This document shows, piece by piece, positions 2,000 to 57,676 of a stretch of DNA of 64,000 bases (position 1 is the first letter of the stretch; each line of letters starts with the position of its first letter). The translations under genes and the position numbers were made by a program. The stretch covers positions 21,102-85,101 of the forward strand of contig SVTK01000013.1 of the NCBI GenBank assembly GCA_015063805.1. Direction: 5' to 3'. Origin of the DNA: Oscillospiraceae bacterium. Its GTDB lineage: Bacteria; Bacillota; Clostridia; Oscillospirales; CAG-272. Under the pieces are notes generated by a model that was not told where the DNA came from, did not search any database, and saw only the letters and a program-made list of their open reading frames with translations.

Positions 2000-3052
2000 T
2001 TACGGCACCATCAAAGCTTGAAACTCCTCGCTTTCCCGGATCGGATCAAAGCATTGGTTGTTGTTCAGGCAGCGAATGAAATCATCCACATCTGTTGAAT
2101 CGGACTCGGAAATGAGAGGGTCTTCTTCAATGAGAGAAAACAGGGGCGCGGTGAATTTGATGACCTTTTGATGATATACTTTCGTCATTTCTTCCGCGTG
2201 ATATCTTGCTTTTTTCAACTCTTCCAGCACGCGGTCATACTGCTTTGTTTTGCAAAAATGAAAGGCTTTGCTGATACAGTTGTATTGCAGTATGTTGTGG
2301 TAGTATTGGTAATTCCCGTCGGGGAACAGAATAAGCAGAATCTTTTCCACCGCCTCCAAGGCCTCTATTGAGCTTTGCCCGAATTTTAAGTGGAAGAGAA
2401 AACGGTTCAGCTTTTTGTTTGCCAGGTGCTGACAATGCCGTTTCTTTTCCTCGCCCTCCAGGCACCAGCAAAGCAGCTCGTCTCTTTTCTCTTCGTTCTC
2501 TTCCAACAAAGCATACTTCTTCGCTTCCTCTTTTTGCTGATTACAGCTGAGCGCAAGAACAATGCCGAACAATGCCTTGGCATATAATTTTGAACTTCCC
2601 GTATGATCAAGAACGGTTTTATAATGCTTTGCAGAGCTGTCAAGTAAGCGGGAATATTCGTCGTCATCCGATTTCGGGATGGCAACGTAATACTCCGCCG
2701 ATGCCAACCATTCCACATACTCCATGTTCCCGGGGTATTCGGCAACTGCGCGCAGGGCGATTTGATAGTTTTTCTCTTTGTCGTCGTGTTTCCAATACTC
2801 ATGAAAGGCTTCGTCAAATTCCGCTTTGCGCAAGTCCTTTTGATAGGTTTCCATTCCCAGCAGATAATCGGTGGTGACGTTGAACAGGTTGGCAAGGGGC
2901 GGCAGAAGAGAAATATCGGGCATTGCTGCATCGGTTTCCCAACGGCTCACCGCCTGCGGGGAAATTGAGAGAAGATCCGCGAGTTTTTCCTGTGTCATAT
3001 TGGTATTTCGTCGAAGAGTTTTTATGGTTTGTCCAAAAGACATATTAATCAT
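2000..3052 (-). CDS. XRE-family HTH transcriptional regulator with long all-alpha (TPR-like) C-terminal domain
   Basis: N-terminal MSFGQTIKTLRRNTNMTQEKLADLLSISPQAVSRWE is a canonical XRE HTH. About 300 aa helical C-terminus. The gene is AT-rich relative to neighbours. Start chosen at the M preceding the HTH with RBS CAGGAGGA. Confidence 0.6.
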   Translation of the reverse strand: MINMSFGQTIKTLRRNTNMTQEKLADLLSISPQAVSRWETDAAMPDISLLPPLANLFNVTTDYLLGMETYQKDLRKAEFDEAFHEYWKHDDKEKNYQIALRAVAEYPGNMEYVEWLASAEYYVAIPKSDDDEYSRLLDSSAKHYKTVLDHTGSSKLYAKALFGIVLALSCNQQKEEAKKYALLEENEEKRDELLCWCLEGEEKKRHCQHLANKKLNRFLFHLKFGQSSIEALEAVEKILLILFPDGNYQYYHNILQYNCISKAFHFCKTKQYDRVLEELKKARYHAEEMTKVYHQKVIKFTAPLFSLIEEDPLISESDSTDVDDFIRCLNNNQCFDPIRESEEFQALMVP

Positions 3053-3217
3053 CCTCCTGAATAGGTTACTTGACCGGCCGGTGATTCTATTATAACATTT
3101 TTTTGCGATTTGTCCACCTCTCGCTGATTGAGAGAGGGTAAACCGAAAATTGAGTGAGGGAAAGGATTGGCGCACCTGCCCGGGGCAGGTGCGCCAATGT
3201 ATGCTTTTTCGCGAAGA

Positions 3218-5269
3218 TTATGGTGGGGAAATCTGATTTGCCGAGGTGTATGTGCCGGTATTGATCACACCGAACTTGTCTGCATTCGCCCAGCTTTCCT
3301 GGGCGGCGGGATAGAGCAGTACCGTGTCTTCATCGGCGAGCTCCAGCTTATCTCCCCCCACCATGGTGGGGTAAGGCCCGCGGAAGGTCAGACGCTCAAG
3401 GGCAGGACAGCCCGAGAACGCGGTTGCATCAAATTCTTTTAGTGAGGAGGGCAGCATATATTCGGTGATTTGTGGGTTGTCGGCCAAAGCCCCTGCAGGA
3501 AGCGATTGGATGCGATCGGACAGACGAATCGAACGAAGCGCGGGCATACCCGCCAGTGCATTCTCCTCCAGCGTGGTAACGTTGGTCTTCAGCGTCAGAT
3601 TTTGCAAATACACACTGCCGTAAAAGGCGTAAGGCGCAATGGTTGTTGCAGATGAGTAGACAGTGAAGGATGTATTTCCTTTGCCCGCGGGATAGCGGAT
3701 CAGTACAGTCTTATCATGATTGTACAGAGCATCATTGATGGTCCAGAAGCAGGGGTTACCATATGCAGTTTTGATGGAGGTCAGGGACGGGCAGGCCAGG
3801 GCATTTTCTTCAACTTTGGTCAGGGTCACGGGAATAGACAGCATTTGCAGATTGATGCAGCCTGCCAGCGCATAGGGGCGGAGTGTTTCCACAAAGGAAG
3901 AGTAGGAATTGCTGATGGTGAGAAGGTTGCGGCTGGTCATGGCATACTCCCCGATCACGGTAACGGATGAAGGAATCACAAAATCGGAGCCCGGCTTGTT
4001 GTTGGGATATGCAATGAGCAGGGTCATATCTGCCGAATACAGTACGCCGTTGACGGCTTTCAGATAGGGAGAGCTGTTCTCCACTTCGATGATTTTTAAC
4101 TCCTTCAGTGCAGACAGCGTGCGGCCTGAGACGGTTTTCAGAGTGGCGGGAAGAGAGAGCTGCTCGATATAAAGGTCTTTTCCGAATGCATCTTCCGCCA
4201 GCGCGACAACAGGAAGTCCATCAATTTCTGCGGGAATATCCAGTGATGGTTCATCGGTGACGATTTTCTCCAGGATAATGCCATCCTCACCCACCGAATA
4301 GGTGAAGGGGGACACATTTTCCGAAACCGGAGTGGTTTCTGTGGTTTGTGCATCTGCGGCGGGATTGCTCCCATCTGACGGAGGAGGATCTGTGTGTTGA
4401 AGATAGCCAATTCCCAGCATGGTCGTCATCAGTACAAGAAAAATCAACACAAAGGGAATAATGGCGGCGGGGGAGAATTTCAGCAGATACTTGCGCCGCA
4501 GAACCGAGCGCAATCTGTTGCGCTTCGGTGACACCTCATCCTCCTCAGGAACAGCGATAAAGGTGACGGATTCGGGATTAACCGTTTGTCCTATGCTGAG
4601 CGCGCTGAGAATCGTGGTGAAGATTTTTGCCGACTCGGCAGCGGACAGGGTGACCGGGATGCCGGGCAGAGCCATCAGCGCGGCAATCCCCAGGACAGCA
4701 GGCGGCAAGTGGAGCTTGTCCCCGGTGCGGCGCTCCTCTTCTTCGATGGCACGGCGCAGGGTAGTGCGTGCATAGAACAGGCGGCTTTTGATGGTGTTGG
4801 CCGAGCAGTTTTCCAGGGCGGCGGCCTGTCCCACAGACAGCTGATGAAAATATACGTAGTTTACCGCACGCTGCTGTGGTTCGGGCAGGAGAAGCATGAT
4901 TCGCTGAATCACCGACTGAATCGCTTCTTTTTGGTGCCAGAGTTCAATGTCATCTTCTCCCGGCGGTTCCGGGACGGGGGGAGAGCAGGAAGTGTTTTCT
5001 GCATTTACAAGATGGTCGGTACACACATTGTGCGTAATGACAGTCAGCCAGCGGATGAAGGAATGACTGTCACGCAGGGTTGGTAAATAGCGAAAAACGC
5101 GGATATATACCTCGGATACCACATCCTTGGCCTCCTCAGGATTTTTGACGGCGGCACAGGCGATGTTGTATACCATAGAATGTGTTTCTTTGAAAATGAT
5201 TGCAAATGCCTCTTCGTCCCCAAGCTTTGCTTTTTCGATGTAGTCAATGAGATGATCGGGTTGCTGCAA
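3218..5269 (-). CDS. Sigma-70/ECF-family sigma factor fused to a transmembrane helix and an extracytoplasmic BspA-type leucine-rich-repeat domain
   Basis: TTG start with strong RBS (AAAGGAGGGG). N-terminus has sigma region 2 (VYIRVFRYLPTL...FIRWLTVITHNVCTDHL) and region 4 (LSVGQAAALENCSANTIKSRLFYARTTLRRAI). Then a hydrophobic helix AAIIPFVLIFLVLMTTMLGIGYL, a proline-rich linker, and about 330 aa of LRR_5-like repeats (IPSSVTVIGEYAM...C.NL..L.IP.). Confidence 0.75.
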   Translation of the reverse strand: MQQPDHLIDYIEKAKLGDEEAFAIIFKETHSMVYNIACAAVKNPEEAKDVVSEVYIRVFRYLPTLRDSHSFIRWLTVITHNVCTDHLVNAENTSCSPPVPEPPGEDDIELWHQKEAIQSVIQRIMLLLPEPQQRAVNYVYFHQLSVGQAAALENCSANTIKSRLFYARTTLRRAIEEEERRTGDKLHLPPAVLGIAALMALPGIPVTLSAAESAKIFTTILSALSIGQTVNPESVTFIAVPEEDEVSPKRNRLRSVLRRKYLLKFSPAAIIPFVLIFLVLMTTMLGIGYLQHTDPPPSDGSNPAADAQTTETTPVSENVSPFTYSVGEDGIILEKIVTDEPSLDIPAEIDGLPVVALAEDAFGKDLYIEQLSLPATLKTVSGRTLSALKELKIIEVENSSPYLKAVNGVLYSADMTLLIAYPNNKPGSDFVIPSSVTVIGEYAMTSRNLLTISNSYSSFVETLRPYALAGCINLQMLSIPVTLTKVEENALACPSLTSIKTAYGNPCFWTINDALYNHDKTVLIRYPAGKGNTSFTVYSSATTIAPYAFYGSVYLQNLTLKTNVTTLEENALAGMPALRSIRLSDRIQSLPAGALADNPQITEYMLPSSLKEFDATAFSGCPALERLTFRGPYPTMVGGDKLELADEDTVLLYPAAQESWANADKFGVINTGTYTSANQISPP

Positions 5270-5532
5270 TGAAACCCCTCCTTTTGTGAAGTGGACGGAG
5301 TCCGTTGGAATGGGTGTGCAGAATACACAAGTTTATTATAGCACAGACGGTGGAAATATTCAAGAAAACAATTTTTCGGAAAATAAAACCGAATTGTCAA
5401 AAATGGAGTCATACGAACGAATTTGGTAAATTTCCAAGGAATTATGCCATGGGAATTGATTTTTGACGGGAGATATGGTATACTGTCGGTATATGGCCGT
5501 CCCGACGGCTGTTTTGGCGAGGAGATGAACCC

Positions 5533-54023: not shown

Positions 54024-55043
54024 TTATTGCAGGGGGATAGTCTGGCCGTCCAGCGTCAGGCTGACGACCTTGCCCGTGTCAATGGCTTTATCGAGCAGCC
54101 AGTTGAAAACAAATTTGCCATCGGGCATGGTCCCGCAGCCGTTTTTGCCGCCGCAGGGGAGCGTGGTACCATCGGCCAGGGTCAGATAAGCCTCGTCTAA
54201 AAGCGTGCCGACCCAGGGCATTTCTCTGCCGTCAGGGGCATCACAGGTGCCGGAGAGAGTCAGTTCGGTGTTGGTCATGGTGATGTGGTCCATGCTGATG
54301 ACAATGCCGTCACGGTGAATGGTGATGGGGGTGATTTCGCTGTCCAGCGTGTCATTCCGGTAGTTCAGCGAGACGGACATGGGTTTGGCGGGGGTACCGA
54401 AGGGGCGGGTGGTGATGGCACCGTCGGCCATTTGCAAGGTGAGCAGCATTTCGCCCGGTGTCAGCGTGGCCGTCTGACCGATATGGACGAGATCAGCGTT
54501 GTAGAGCAGGGCTGATCCTTCAAGGTGGACACAGCCGGGGGTGCTGTCACCCAGGGGTGAGATGTAGACCTTTCTTTGGGTACCGTCGGCAAAGGTGAGA
54601 GCGGCATTGGGAAAGTCGATGTGAAGAAGCGTTTCGCCGTCTTCTACCGAGACAACATCACTGCCGTCGGTTCGGGTCAGCGACAGCGAGAGATAGAGCT
54701 GATTCCCGCCGCCGGTGACGGCATCACAGCGAAACTCCAGAGGCGAAGCATTGCCGGTATCAACGGTTGCCAGCGCATCGGGCTGTGTGATGACGATATC
54801 GGGATCGTTGACAAAATGCGACTCCGTTTTGCCGCGCAGGCCAAACCATGCGGTGGCCGATCCGATGGCTCCAACCGTCAGCGTTGCGGCTGTGATCACC
54901 GCGGCGGCGATGATGATCCCTGCTGTGCGGCGGGGCAGATGCCGCGTGCGGGATGCTTCTGCGCGGCAGGACGCCATGATCCGCGCCCGTGTTTCATTCG
55001 GAAGACGCTGCTCCCGCAGTTCTCGGAAAAAACGTTCATTCAT
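54024..55043 (-). CDS. Putative anti-sigma factor: single-pass membrane protein with large extracytoplasmic domain
   Basis: Overlaps the sigma gene by ATGA. Cytoplasmic N-terminus (about 50 aa), TM helix IIIAAAVITAATLTVGAIGSATAWF, about 270 aa beta-rich ectodomain. Confidence 0.55.
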   Translation of the reverse strand: MNERFFRELREQRLPNETRARIMASCRAEASRTRHLPRRTAGIIIAAAVITAATLTVGAIGSATAWFGLRGKTESHFVNDPDIVITQPDALATVDTGNASPLEFRCDAVTGGGNQLYLSLSLTRTDGSDVVSVEDGETLLHIDFPNAALTFADGTQRKVYISPLGDSTPGCVHLEGSALLYNADLVHIGQTATLTPGEMLLTLQMADGAITTRPFGTPAKPMSVSLNYRNDTLDSEITPITIHRDGIVISMDHITMTNTELTLSGTCDAPDGREMPWVGTLLDEAYLTLADGTTLPCGGKNGCGTMPDGKFVFNWLLDKAIDTGKVVSLTLDGQTIPLQ

Positions 55044-55528
55044 GATCTTTCTCCTCCTGCATACGCGAATTTGAATTTTTCGCGCCCAGTTTTCAGGCGC
55101 ATTTTGGCAGCCGATTCACTGATGCCAAGCATTCGTGCCGCTTCCTTTACCGGATAACCCTCTACGTAATGCAGCAGCATGATTTGCCGCGATTGAGGGG
55201 GCAGGGCCGCCAGCGTAGCCAGCACCTCGCTGCAGTCCTCGTCCGCAGGCAGCTCTGCCACTGCATCCAGTGCCACGGTACTGCGAATCTTCCGTCGACG
55301 GAGCATATCCCGGCAAAGATTCATTGCAACCGTGATGAGCCAGGCCTTCTCATGCTCGGTGTCACGAAAATGCGGTGCACGGCGAAGGTAGCGAAGCATG
55401 GTTTCCTGCACGGCATCTTCAGCATCAGCGCGGTTGGCCAGCATCCCCAACGCGATGCGGTACAGCGTGTCTCCCCAACGGTGGAGTGCCAACTCGGCAT
55501 TGCTCAGCCGCATGTTTGGGTCATTCAT
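55040..55528 (-). CDS. ECF-type RNA polymerase sigma factor (sigma-70 regions 2 and 4)
   Basis: DAVQETMLRYLRRAPHF..EKAWLITVAMNLCRDMLRRR (region 2). QSRQIMLLHYVEGYPVKEAARMLGISESAAKMRLKTGREK (region 4). Confidence 0.85.
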   Translation of the reverse strand: MNDPNMRLSNAELALHRWGDTLYRIALGMLANRADAEDAVQETMLRYLRRAPHFRDTEHEKAWLITVAMNLCRDMLRRRKIRSTVALDAVAELPADEDCSEVLATLAALPPQSRQIMLLHYVEGYPVKEAARMLGISESAAKMRLKTGREKFKFAYAGGERS

Positions 55529-55655: not shown

Positions 55656-57065
55656 TTATTCGGCGGTCGGCTCTTCTGCGGGAGCATCCTCGGCCTTTTT
55701 GCCGAGATACTCAGGCAGCTGCATACCGGCCATGTCGAAGATTTCGTTGAGGGGAGGAACCGACTTCATCAGGCCCGACACAAAGTTGGCAGTCGAGGTC
55801 TTGCCGTCTGCGGAATTTGCGCCGTTGTCCCAAACCGTGATCTTGTCGATCTTGAGGTTCTTGATGGCATCCACCTGGATGCGGGTGAGCTCTTCCATCT
55901 TGTCGGCCAGCATGAGACGGATGGCATCGCTTGCCTCGCCGCCGGCAGAGTTGACGATCTCGGTGAAGCCTTCGGCCTGCTTGGAGAGGATCTCCCGCAT
56001 ACCGGCGGCTTCAGCCTGCATCTTCATCAGGATGGCATCGGCTTCACCGCGAGCCTTGCGGCGCATCTGTTCAGCCTCGGCCTCAGCTTCCAGCTCTTTC
56101 TGCTTCTTGGCGATTTCAGCCTTGACCAGAACATCTGCCTCAAGGCGAGCCTTTTCCAGAGCGGCACGGGCAGTTTCAGCGGCCTGCTGAGCGGCGTAGG
56201 ATTCCTCCAGGGCACGGGCGGCCTGAATATTCTCGGCGGCGGTAGCGCGTTTCAGGGACTCTGCCTCGCGCTCACGGCGGCTAGCCTCGGAATCGGCGAT
56301 CTGAATCTTGGCTTCGTTCTCACCGCGGATTGCCTCGGAGTCGGATTTTGCCACGCTGATACGCTGTTCCTTCTCGGCAATGGATGCACCGATGGCACCG
56401 TTACGGTCAGCCTCGGCAACCGATACCTTAGCATCGTTGATGGCCTTGGCGGCGGCTTCCTTACCCAGGGCGGCGATGTAGCCGCTCTCGTCGTTGATGT
56501 CGGTGACGTTTACGTTGATCAGACGGAGACCAATCTTCTTCAGCTCGGTTTCCACATTGCCCGAAACCGCTTCAAGGAACTTGTCGCGGTCGGTGTTGAT
56601 CTCCTCGATGTCCATGGTGGCGATAACCAAACGCAGCTGACCGAAGATGATATCCTTCGCCAGCTCCTGGATTTCCACCAGCTTCAGGCCCAGCAGACGC
56701 TCGGCCGCATTCTGCATGACGCCAACCTCGGTGGAGATACCGACGGTAAAACGGGAGGGAACATCGATACGGATGTTCTGACGGGAGAGGGCATTGGTCA
56801 GATCCACGCTGATGGACAGGGGCGTCAGATCGAGATACTCATACGCCTGGATGACGGGCCAGATAAAGGCCGCGCCGCCGTGGATACATTTTGCGGAGCG
56901 GGAGGTGCCGTCCTTGTTGGTGCCCACCTTACCGTAAATAACCATGACCTTATCCGAGGGACACTTTTTGTAGCGGGAAAGGACGACGATGAGGGTAGTG
57001 AAGAGGAGAAGGGCGATGACGACCACCAAACCGATGATGGCAGGGTTAATTCCGTTTTGCGGCAT
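55656..57065 (-). CDS. floT: Flotillin (SPFH/band-7 domain, FloT/YuaG-like)
   Basis: N-terminal membrane hairpin, SPFH domain, long EA-rich coiled-coil (AEAEAEQMRRKARGEADA). Confidence 0.85.
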   Translation of the reverse strand: MPQNGINPAIIGLVVVIALLLFTTLIVVLSRYKKCPSDKVMVIYGKVGTNKDGTSRSAKCIHGGAAFIWPVIQAYEYLDLTPLSISVDLTNALSRQNIRIDVPSRFTVGISTEVGVMQNAAERLLGLKLVEIQELAKDIIFGQLRLVIATMDIEEINTDRDKFLEAVSGNVETELKKIGLRLINVNVTDINDESGYIAALGKEAAAKAINDAKVSVAEADRNGAIGASIAEKEQRISVAKSDSEAIRGENEAKIQIADSEASRREREAESLKRATAAENIQAARALEESYAAQQAAETARAALEKARLEADVLVKAEIAKKQKELEAEAEAEQMRRKARGEADAILMKMQAEAAGMREILSKQAEGFTEIVNSAGGEASDAIRLMLADKMEELTRIQVDAIKNLKIDKITVWDNGANSADGKTSTANFVSGLMKSVPPLNEIFDMAGMQLPEYLGKKAEDAPAEEPTAE

Positions 57066-57097
57066 AGCAGTGATTCCTTTCTTTGGTGATTTTGATT

Positions 57098-57676
57098 TTA
57101 TTGGATGGGTTCAACGACAAGGGTACCGTCCTCACCGGCCGAGACCACACGGACGTAGCTGCCCGTGGGGAGAGTTTGGTTGACGGTAGTGATTGCCGTG
57201 ACTTCGATGTACTTCTCCTGCAGAGTCAGCGTAACCTTGCCGCTGGCAGTTCCTGCGGGAGGGATGGGGATATAAACCTGGGCCACATGGCCGATGCTGT
57301 TGCCGTAATCGATGTTGCCCGAGGATTGGAGTTTCATCACCAGCTTCATCAGGTAAGCAAAGCCCACCATGGTGGCAAAGCCCAGTACAATGGAAATGAG
57401 GATCGATACAATATGAGGCAGCGCGGTTTCCAGCAAAGCCACAGCGCTCCATCCCATCACGCAGAGCATAGCCATAATACCGCGAATGGAGAAGAGCGCA
57501 AGACCATCGTCTCCTACGTCGATGTCACCATCGGTGTCAACGTCGGCGTCCATGTCGTTGTCGCCCGCGCCGAAGAGCAGCATCAGGGTCTGAATGACCA
57601 GGATCAAACTTGAGGGGATTGCGATCAGGGCAAAAATTTGCTGTATGAGCATCAGCTCGTTCCACCAGTTAAGCAT
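57098..57676 (-). CDS. NfeD-family membrane protein (YuaF-like partner of flotillin)
   Basis: Three N-terminal TM helices plus C-terminal OB-fold (GKVTLTLQEKYIEVTAIT). Located immediately upstream of the flotillin gene. Confidence 0.75.
   Translation of the reverse strand: MLNWWNELMLIQQIFALIAIPSSLILVIQTLMLLFGAGDNDMDADVDTDGDIDVGDDGLALFSIRGIMAMLCVMGWSAVALLETALPHIVSILISIVLGFATMVGFAYLMKLVMKLQSSGNIDYGNSIGHVAQVYIPIPPAGTASGKVTLTLQEKYIEVTAITTVNQTLPTGSYVRVVSAGEDGTLVVEPIQ

Follow-up and report, generated by a model that had tools for sequence, protein, structure and literature searches.

Several sigma factors of the extracytoplasmic function (ECF) type are fused, within one polypeptide, to a membrane-spanning extension. 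In SCO4117, the ECF52 protein of Streptomyces coelicolor, the sigma domain is followed by a zinc finger, a transmembrane segment, a Pro-rich region and a carbohydrate-binding module; the protein has been studied genetically, excision from the membrane by proteolysis has been proposed for ECF52, and the group is reported to be exclusive to Actinobacteria (PMC5826349). IutY of Pseudomonas putida, an ECF243 hybrid, belongs to FecI/FecR-type cell-surface signalling in a diderm, with a TonB-dependent receptor and siderophore sensing; its sigma domain is freed by Prc and then RseP, and truncation of its extension results in constitutive activity (PMC8999054). ECF48 and ECF53 are further fused examples. 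Here, we describe a gene in a 64,000-nucleotide stretch of Oscillospiraceae DNA (contig SVTK01000013.1; hereafter the window) that encodes an ECF-type sigma factor, a single membrane helix and a leucine-rich-repeat (LRR) domain in one protein, and we call it the sigma-LRR gene. A preliminary description of the window regarded fused sigma/membrane proteins as uncharacterised, which the proteolytic release of IutY and the genetics of SCO4117 contradict. The design is already known from ECF52, ECF48/53 and IutY; what is gained here is breadth and a new type of linker, and no new principle.

Clostridia of the gut are difficult experimental subjects, and little is known of how they perceive surfaces, polymers or material from the host. 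If the reading developed below is true, each fused protein would be a self-contained wire from sensor to RNA polymerase whose input domain can be read from its sequence, and together they would amount to an inventory of the things that Clostridia watch for outside the cell. They would also offer a compact chassis for synthetic receptors, in which the ectodomain is swapped and the orthogonal sigma factor kept, and a test of whether a zinc-free two-helix segment serves as a built-in anti-sigma factor. As members occur in the cultivable Clostridium beijerinckii, among them a homologue of 469 aa (WP_105411018 cluster), the question is experimentally tractable.

One open reading frame joins a sigma factor to a predicted surface domain

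The sigma-LRR gene lies on the minus strand, as do all other features given below. Its coding sequence, 683 codons plus stop in one unbroken open reading frame, runs over 3218..5269, exactly the coordinates of the preliminary description, which did not give the strand. The start codon is TTG at 5269, and a ribosome-binding site, AAGGAGG, can be read from the sequence 7 nt upstream (5277..5283); AAAGGAGG is kept upstream of the orthologues as well. The product is identical to NCBI MBE6575999.1, which comes from a Ruminococcaceae/Oscillospiraceae metagenome-assembled genome (MAG) and is labelled 'sigma-70 family RNA polymerase sigma factor'. Pfam matches over their thresholds, hydropathy and composition bear out the order of parts proposed earlier, namely ECF sigma factor, membrane helix, Pro-rich stalk and BspA-type LRR domain, with the Sigma70_r2, region 4 and LRR_5 profiles all scoring above their curated cut-offs. 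Sequence analysis thus confirms the prediction of an ECF-type sigma factor, a single membrane helix and an outward LRR domain in one protein.

Because the sequence comes from an uncultured MAG, the joining of a sigma gene to a neighbouring membrane LRR or anti-sigma gene might be an error of sequencing or assembly. In a search of 5.8 billion proteins, we found about 15 with the same architecture, from 97% down to 31% identity, which align end to end and come from NCBI, Logan, ENA and JGI assemblies. The persistence of the same unbroken fusion, at similar length, in diverged orthologues from independent assemblies excludes a frameshift or assembly chimera. The fusion is also present in hundreds of members of a wider superfamily, described below, including some from complete genomes of cultured C. 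beijerinckii, and we regard the probability of an artefact as negligible. Counting one genome per species, close relatives of the part comprising the sigma domain and the module that follows it occur in six species-level Clostridia/Oscillospiraceae MAGs, mostly from animal gut, including roe deer and sheep colon.

The layout can be set against those of the fused sigma factors already described. The sigma-LRR protein resembles ECF52 in that a single chain starts with an ECF sigma domain (TIGR02937), crosses the membrane in a helix and continues through a Pro-rich extracytoplasmic spacer to a macromolecule-binding C-terminus, and in that a separate anti-sigma gene is absent. However, ECF52 proteins have a zf-HC2 or zinc-binding anti-sigma (ZAS) domain between sigma and helix, whereas the linker of the sigma-LRR protein has no Cys and no zinc finger and carries a different, two-helix module; moreover, ECF52 combines a carbohydrate-binding module with an actinobacterial host, and the sigma-LRR protein combines LRR_5 with a clostridial one. 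With IutY, it has in common the fusion of sigma to a membrane-spanning regulatory extension, but it is clostridial and carries an LRR ectodomain of its own, and a Pfam search gave no match to a FecR-family domain at E≤1. Because it has no zinc finger, carbohydrate-binding module or FecR domain and comes from another phylum, the protein falls outside the ECF52 and IutY groups, although it is expected to act in a similar manner.

The N-terminus is predicted to be a complete ECF sigma factor

Sigma70_r2 matches residues 26-88 with 41.6 bits (Pfam cut-off 24) and Sigma70_r4_2 matches residues 121-171 with 32.8 bits (cut-off 25.7), and no match to Sigma70_r3 or r1 was obtained at E≤1 when the 683-aa protein was compared with Pfam. 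The NCBIfam superfamily model TIGR02937 (sigma70-ECF) scores 57.9 against a cut-off of 42.9. None of the NCBIfam equivalog models (SigW, SigV, SigM, RpoE and others) reached its threshold, the best scoring 62-69 bits against cut-offs of 130-236. By sequence, residues 10-177 match AlgU, RpoE and SigW in the PDB (E ~1e-13).

The AlphaFold model is in keeping with these matches. Region 2 (residues 5-94; 4988..5257) is modelled with a predicted local distance difference test score (pLDDT) of 91-97 and resembles region 2 of sigmaE with a target-normalised Foldseek template-modelling score (TM-score) of 0.8-0.87; region 4 (residues 106-182; 4724..4954), with pLDDT 86-96, resembles sigmaE region 4 with a TM-score of 0.8. 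Both would lie in the cytoplasm. The linker joining them consists of about 11 non-helical residues (95-105) between helices 68-94 and 106-125. Together, these data argue that the N-terminus is a complete ECF-type (group 4) sigma factor composed of region 2 plus region 4.

A single membrane helix separates the sigma domain from the LRR array

A 19-residue Kyte-Doolittle scan places one transmembrane helix at residues 267-290 (4400..4471), where hydropathy reaches its maximum of 2.6; AlphaFold models a helix over residues 267-289. Residues 250-275, which comprise the stretch before the helix and its first residues, contain seven Lys or Arg, all of them within 250-264, and no Asp or Glu. The 31 residues after the helix contain no Lys or Arg and five Asp or Glu. 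Because of this positive-inside pattern around residues 267-290, the sigma domain is predicted to be cytoplasmic and the LRR domain to lie outside, as expected of a single-pass type II (N-in/C-out) membrane protein. Residues 186-211, which score 1.9 on the Kyte-Doolittle scale, were considered as a second membrane helix and rejected: relatives have Arg, Lys, Asp and Glu there, and the basic cluster directly precedes 267-290.

The segment leading up to the helix, a variable acidic linker (residues 230-266; 4472..4582), ends in a basic juxtamembrane motif, RNRLRSVLRRKYLLKF. It is modelled at pLDDT ~50 and, in the alignment of the LRR subfamily, is poorly conserved except for R259 and RRKYLLKF. 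A short amphipathic motif directly before the membrane helix is seen in many members of the wider superfamily (for example GLLAKI.......K, and RRKYLLKF in the LRR subfamily; columns ~301-330 of alignment A4). This motif may form an interfacial helix, or else act as a determinant of proteolysis or of insertion.

Beyond the helix, a predicted extracytoplasmic stalk rich in Pro, Thr and acidic residues (residues 291-321, with 7 Pro in 31 residues; 4307..4399) differs in length and sequence between orthologues. It leads into the BspA-type LRR ectodomain (approximately residues 322-650; 3320..4306), which matches LRR_5 in two stretches (99.6 bits against a Pfam cut-off of 27.7, E=1.5e-28) and LRR_8 with 37.5 bits. 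The ectodomain also matches LRR-only homologues, and its nearest relatives outside sigma proteins are large LRR_5 surface proteins of Clostridia. An LRR_5 array is what the sigma-LRR protein has in common with the BspA-like LRR_5 surface proteins of oral and gut anaerobes, which are adhesin-like or located at the cell surface and lack a signalling domain in the cytoplasm.

The sigma-LRR protein belongs to a large Clostridial superfamily

A word-indexed search for homologues with the N-terminus alone gave only 9 proteins. A much larger group was revealed when a profile of residues 1-296 of the orthologues was run exhaustively with HMMER against 1.84 billion cluster representatives (50% identity): 411 of these clusters match at E≤1e-30, and among the best 150, about 90% contain proteins of 400-1560 aa in which the match runs well past region 4. 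In an annotated collection, the profile search returned 3262 proteins at E≤1e-10, named just 'RNA polymerase sigma factor', from Ruminococcus, Lachnospiraceae, Oscillospiraceae, Eubacteriaceae and the cultured C. beijerinckii.

The members follow one plan. An ECF sigma domain, whose last region 4 helix ends in E..E(K/R)(K/R).G.KL(H/Y), is followed by a hydrophobic helix with P.L..LL, a turn, an amphipathic helix with L(S/P)..A..I...V, a variable stretch often rich in Ala, Gly, Ser and Thr, one membrane helix near residue 270 and a variable C-terminus. The sigma-LRR protein has the motif, the two helices that follow it and the membrane helix near residue 270. Residues T159, K161, S162, R163, L164, A167 and R168 of its recognition helix are invariant or nearly so throughout the superfamily.

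When 76 superfamily proteins were scanned with Pfam, sigma regions were found in all 76 and an LRR_5 C-terminus in seven. The remaining recognisable C-termini were C-type lectin, DUF5050, F5/8-type, DUF6273, M23 peptidase, WG repeat, Big_2, Big_3 and cohesin domains, and many C-termini had no Pfam match. Of the C-terminal domains of relatives, among them LRR_5, C-type lectin, F5/8-like, M23 peptidase, Big_2/3, cohesin and lipase, most are typically extracellular. LRR_5 is thus one plug-in ectodomain among many. The earlier suggestion that the LRR domain senses a host or cell-surface macromolecule is accordingly speculation, the ectodomains being many and interchangeable. Three very long members (P0147, P0159 and P0245), of 1043-1560 aa, end in a second hydrophobic segment, and class 3 lipase domains occur in two of them, P0159 and P0245. 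This terminal segment might act as a cell-wall sorting signal or as a second membrane anchor, so that the ectodomain would be tethered on either side.

The charge pattern seen in the sigma-LRR protein recurs in the 173 superfamily members with a detectable membrane helix. Lys plus Arg average 2.7 before the helix and 1.3 after it, and Asp plus Glu 0.2 before and 2.0 after; the excess of Lys and Arg is on the N-terminal side in 125 members versus 20 with an excess on the C-terminal side. A further hydrophobic segment beyond the membrane helix is present in only 5 of the 173. Given this charge bias and the scarcity of later hydrophobic segments, an N-in/C-out single pass appears to be the rule of the family, and the orientation put forward in the preliminary description, a cytoplasmic sigma domain and an external LRR domain, agrees with the pattern both in the sigma-LRR protein and across its relatives. 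On average, 48% of the residues in the membrane helices of the family are Gly, Ala, Ser, Thr or Pro, and the sigma-LRR helix contains Pro and Gly. Substrates of site-2 proteases tend toward such helix-destabilising residues.

We found no description of this superfamily, or of a sigma-LRR fusion, in the literature; the group tables of the ECF reclassification lay outside that search, so earlier cataloguing is possible. The superfamily thus appears to be undescribed. Within it, the sigma-LRR gene is unremarkable; the distinctive traits, a conserved juxta-sigma module and modular ectodomains, are those of the large Clostridial lineage as a whole.

A conserved two-helix module follows sigma region 4

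Outside the sigma domain, the best-conserved region is the segment directly after region 4 (residues 183-229; 4583..4723), which comprises GDKLHLP, a helix (190-200), a loop and an amphipathic helix (210-223). Within the LRR subfamily, G183, D184, K185, L201, P202, L208, I216 and A223 are invariant, and the pattern E..E+K.G.KL[HY] / P.L..LL / LP..A..I is retained across the whole superfamily. Most of this module (residues 186-227, LHLPP...SALSIG) had been singled out in the preliminary description as a possible in-cis anti-sigma element.

A first AlphaFold run, made with an alignment of 13 sequences, was uninformative here (linker pLDDT 36-56). In a second run with 37 diverse superfamily sequences (mean pLDDT 79.7; predicted TM-score, pTM, 0.56), helix 210-223 was modelled at pLDDT ~94 and helix 190-200 at ~50. 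A short amphipathic helix that is modelled so confidently is normally packed against something; therefore, on this model, helix 210-223 likely makes intramolecular contact with the sigma domains. Because the segment is conserved and its second helix is modelled at this level, an in-cis regulatory role is plausible, and we treat the module as a candidate anti-sigma-like element.

The gene is predicted to be a stand-alone, constitutively transcribed unit

Upstream of the gene, a consensus scan located a putative sigma-A-type promoter with an extended -10 element (TTGAAT, 17 nt, TGcTATAAT; 5335..5363). The form TTGA(A/T)(T/A), 17 nt, TG.TATAAT is common to all seven orthologous loci compared (the window, L001, L002, L003, L004, L006 and L007), with an invariant core of TTGA..TG.TATAA. 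Just upstream of the -35 element lies an AT-rich block of ~47 nt (GACTCC..GGTTTT..AAAATT.TTTTC; 5364..5410), which is largely kept in five of the seven loci (the window, L001, L002, L003 and L004), though the genes flanking L002 differ. This block is possibly an UP element or a regulator site. An autoregulatory ECF promoter of the GAAC..CGTC type was sought upstream of the gene and none was seen, the sigma-A-type promoter being the only one found. At the other end, a hairpin with a 15-bp stem (3166..3198), 20 nt past the stop codon, is likely the transcription terminator.

The downstream neighbour encodes an HTH_3 (XRE-type) protein of 347 aa (2000..3043), with an N-terminal HTH_3 domain and a long C-terminus without a Pfam match. 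It has its own promoter at 3089..3116 and adjoins the sigma-LRR gene only in close relatives: the order Fe-ADH / sigma-LRR / HTH_3 is kept at ≥83% identity and lost at 49%. In the neighbourhoods of the gene and its relatives, no anti-sigma gene or operon partner is adjacent. Because the sigma-LRR gene has its own conserved promoter and a hairpin, and because its neighbours are kept only in close relatives, it is predicted to be monocistronic and stand-alone, and it is probably transcribed constitutively. Control of the sigma-LRR protein is expected to be post-translational.

A scheme for membrane retention and release of the sigma domain

By analogy with IutY and ECF52, we lean, if only just, towards a scheme in which the protein is synthesised constitutively, stays inactive while anchored in the membrane and is set free through regulated intramembrane proteolysis. 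The sigma-LRR protein would be made constitutively and inserted N-in/C-out. Its sigma domain would be inactive at the membrane because of the tether, and probably also because the post-sigma-4 helix folds back and docks on it. Ligand binding, shedding, pulling or a like event at the ectodomain would then license a site-2 protease of the RasP/RseP type to cut the membrane helix, and the freed sigma domain would bind RNA polymerase and turn on its regulon.

Read in this way, the scheme would be a one-polypeptide form of the sigma/anti-sigma regulated-proteolysis pathway. In the RasP-controlled Firmicutes pairs SigW-RsiW, SigV-RsiV and SigI-RsgI, too, an ectodomain controls a cytoplasmic sigma factor through one membrane helix; the sigma domain of the sigma-LRR protein is homologous to SigW and RpoE, and modular sensor domains mounted on a stalk are also found in RsgI proteins. 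The two-gene pairs differ in that sigma and the membrane part are separate, whereas here they are covalently joined, and no anti-sigma domain of the class I/ZAS or RsgI_N type is recognisable in the juxta-sigma module. An RsgI-type SEAL autoproteolytic domain, a fold that was not itself searched for, would not fit beside the membrane, as only ~30 residues separate the helix from the LRR array.

A broader and more tentative proposal is that the two-helix module represents an unrecognised, zinc-free class of in-cis anti-sigma element, and that it is the hallmark of a large family of modular 'one-component ECF receptors' in Clostridia, whose interchangeable surface domains directly couple recognition of extracellular macromolecules to proteolytic release of the covalently attached sigma. 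We consider this proposal rather doubtful as it stands. If its zinc-free in-cis anti-sigma reading is true, the family would be a major, unstudied route of transmembrane signalling in gut Firmicutes.

Several points weigh against the proposed retention and release. The topology is predicted from hydropathy and the positive-inside rule. A site-2 protease motif scan of the 64-kb window found none, which is uninformative for a fragment of such size. The post-sigma-4 module resembles no known anti-sigma domain in Pfam or by sequence comparison with the PDB: all matches were spurious when residues 176-265 were compared with Pfam at E≤10 and when a linker profile of 37 sequences was run against the PDB. 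There is also no Cys in residues 156-470 and no zf-HC2 match; because Cys is absent, the module is not a zinc-binding anti-sigma domain. In mean-field direct coupling analysis of 190 sequences (effective number 171), which recovered plausible intra-domain contacts, linker-to-sigma couplings made up 4 of the 40 top pairs versus ~31% of possible pairs, at or below chance. In the overall arrangement of the sigma domain, superposition with Foldseek gave a root-mean-square deviation (rmsd) of ~12 Å and TM-scores of 0.46-0.52 on anti-sigma-bound ECF factors (AlgU-MucA, SigW-RsiW, RpoE-RseA), versus 23-25 Å and 0.34-0.43 on holoenzyme-bound ones. The modelled layout of regions 2 and 4 would thus be nearer to the anti-sigma-bound state, and more compact than extended, which speaks for retention; against it, both arrangements fit the model poorly (rmsd ≥12 Å, pTM 0.56). 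Finally, residue 52 (5114-5116) is Ser in the core LRR subfamily, where the remaining superfamily, like ECF sigma factors in general, has a near-invariant Gln (region 2.2, D..QE). Judging by region 2.2 mutants of sigma-70, a change from Gln to Ser could weaken binding to core RNA polymerase.

For the segment singled out in the preliminary description, therefore, conservation and a confidently modelled helix were found, and neither similarity to a known anti-sigma domain nor couplings above noise. Two sets of matches were set aside on the way. An inovirus capsid (E=0.45) and designed knot proteins came up as linker relatives and were dismissed as spurious, and the coupled pairs V51-A196, T169-A196 and V58-I195 were rejected as evidence of docking, since linker-to-sigma pairs are no commoner than chance.

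The Ser at residue 52 also bears on whether the N-terminal domain acts in transcription at all. It might be a sigma mimic or another non-transcriptional module, such as a decoy of the PhyR kind by which a partner is titrated, or a domain that simply anchors a surface LRR adhesin on the cytoplasmic side, and this would fit not only the loss of the region 2.2 Gln in the LRR subfamily but also the NCBIfam scores, which pass the superfamily model and no equivalog threshold, and the lack of an autoregulatory ECF-type promoter upstream. However, both sigma regions pass their Pfam thresholds and form the most conserved part of the protein, the recognition-helix residues are nearly or fully invariant, and the Gln is kept in the remaining superfamily, including two more distant LRR-bearing members, P0015 and P0104. 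Such strong purifying selection on a full sigma-2 plus sigma-4 fold fits a working sigma factor, and we find a mimic quite improbable. In the family alignment, the strongest direct coupling is F26-S52. The Ser may be a compensated change in the core-binding surface.

A working sigma factor need not be released. ToxR, CadC and TcpP resemble the sigma-LRR protein in having a cytoplasmic N-terminal DNA-targeting module, one membrane helix and an external C-terminal sensor in one chain, and ToxR-type regulators show that activation of transcription from the membrane is feasible. The preliminary description had likened the design to that of ToxR. By the same logic, an outside ligand might alter the conformation or oligomeric state of the sigma-LRR protein, free the sigma domains from the post-sigma-4 helix and draw RNA polymerase to membrane-proximal promoters without proteolysis. 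The ~85 partly flexible residues between region 4 and the membrane (pLDDT ~50 for 230-266), the reach afforded by the long, Ala/Gly/Ser/Thr-rich linkers of relatives and the absence of a protease gene linked to the locus are all compatible with such a mode. Yet the two kinds of protein are not homologous: the ToxR group uses an OmpR-type winged helix that contacts RNA polymerase from DNA, whereas the sigma-LRR protein is itself a predicted sigma-70 subunit, which must enter the RNA polymerase holoenzyme and so faces a far greater steric demand at the membrane than the binding of a winged-helix activator. Moreover, the characterised fused sigma factor IutY is freed by proteolysis, and Ala/Gly-rich membrane helices are consistent with a protease substrate. 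We therefore think action in the tethered state unlikely, and continue to lean towards proteolytic release.

A probable split sigma/anti-sigma pair elsewhere in the window

The window also contains what is probably a classical split pair. An ECF sigma factor of 162 aa (55528..55040; Sigma70_r2 60 bits, r4_2 58 bits) is encoded immediately ahead of a single-pass membrane protein of 339 aa (55043..54024), and the stop of the sigma gene overlaps the start of the second gene. In the 339-aa protein, one membrane helix connects a short N-terminus in the cytoplasm to an ectodomain of ~280 aa without a Pfam match, and this protein is the probable anti-sigma factor of the pair. Nearby, at 55656-57676, a membrane protein of 192 aa without a Pfam match precedes an SPFH/Band 7 (flotillin-like) protein of 469 aa, a layout that we take to resemble NfeD-flotillin pairs.

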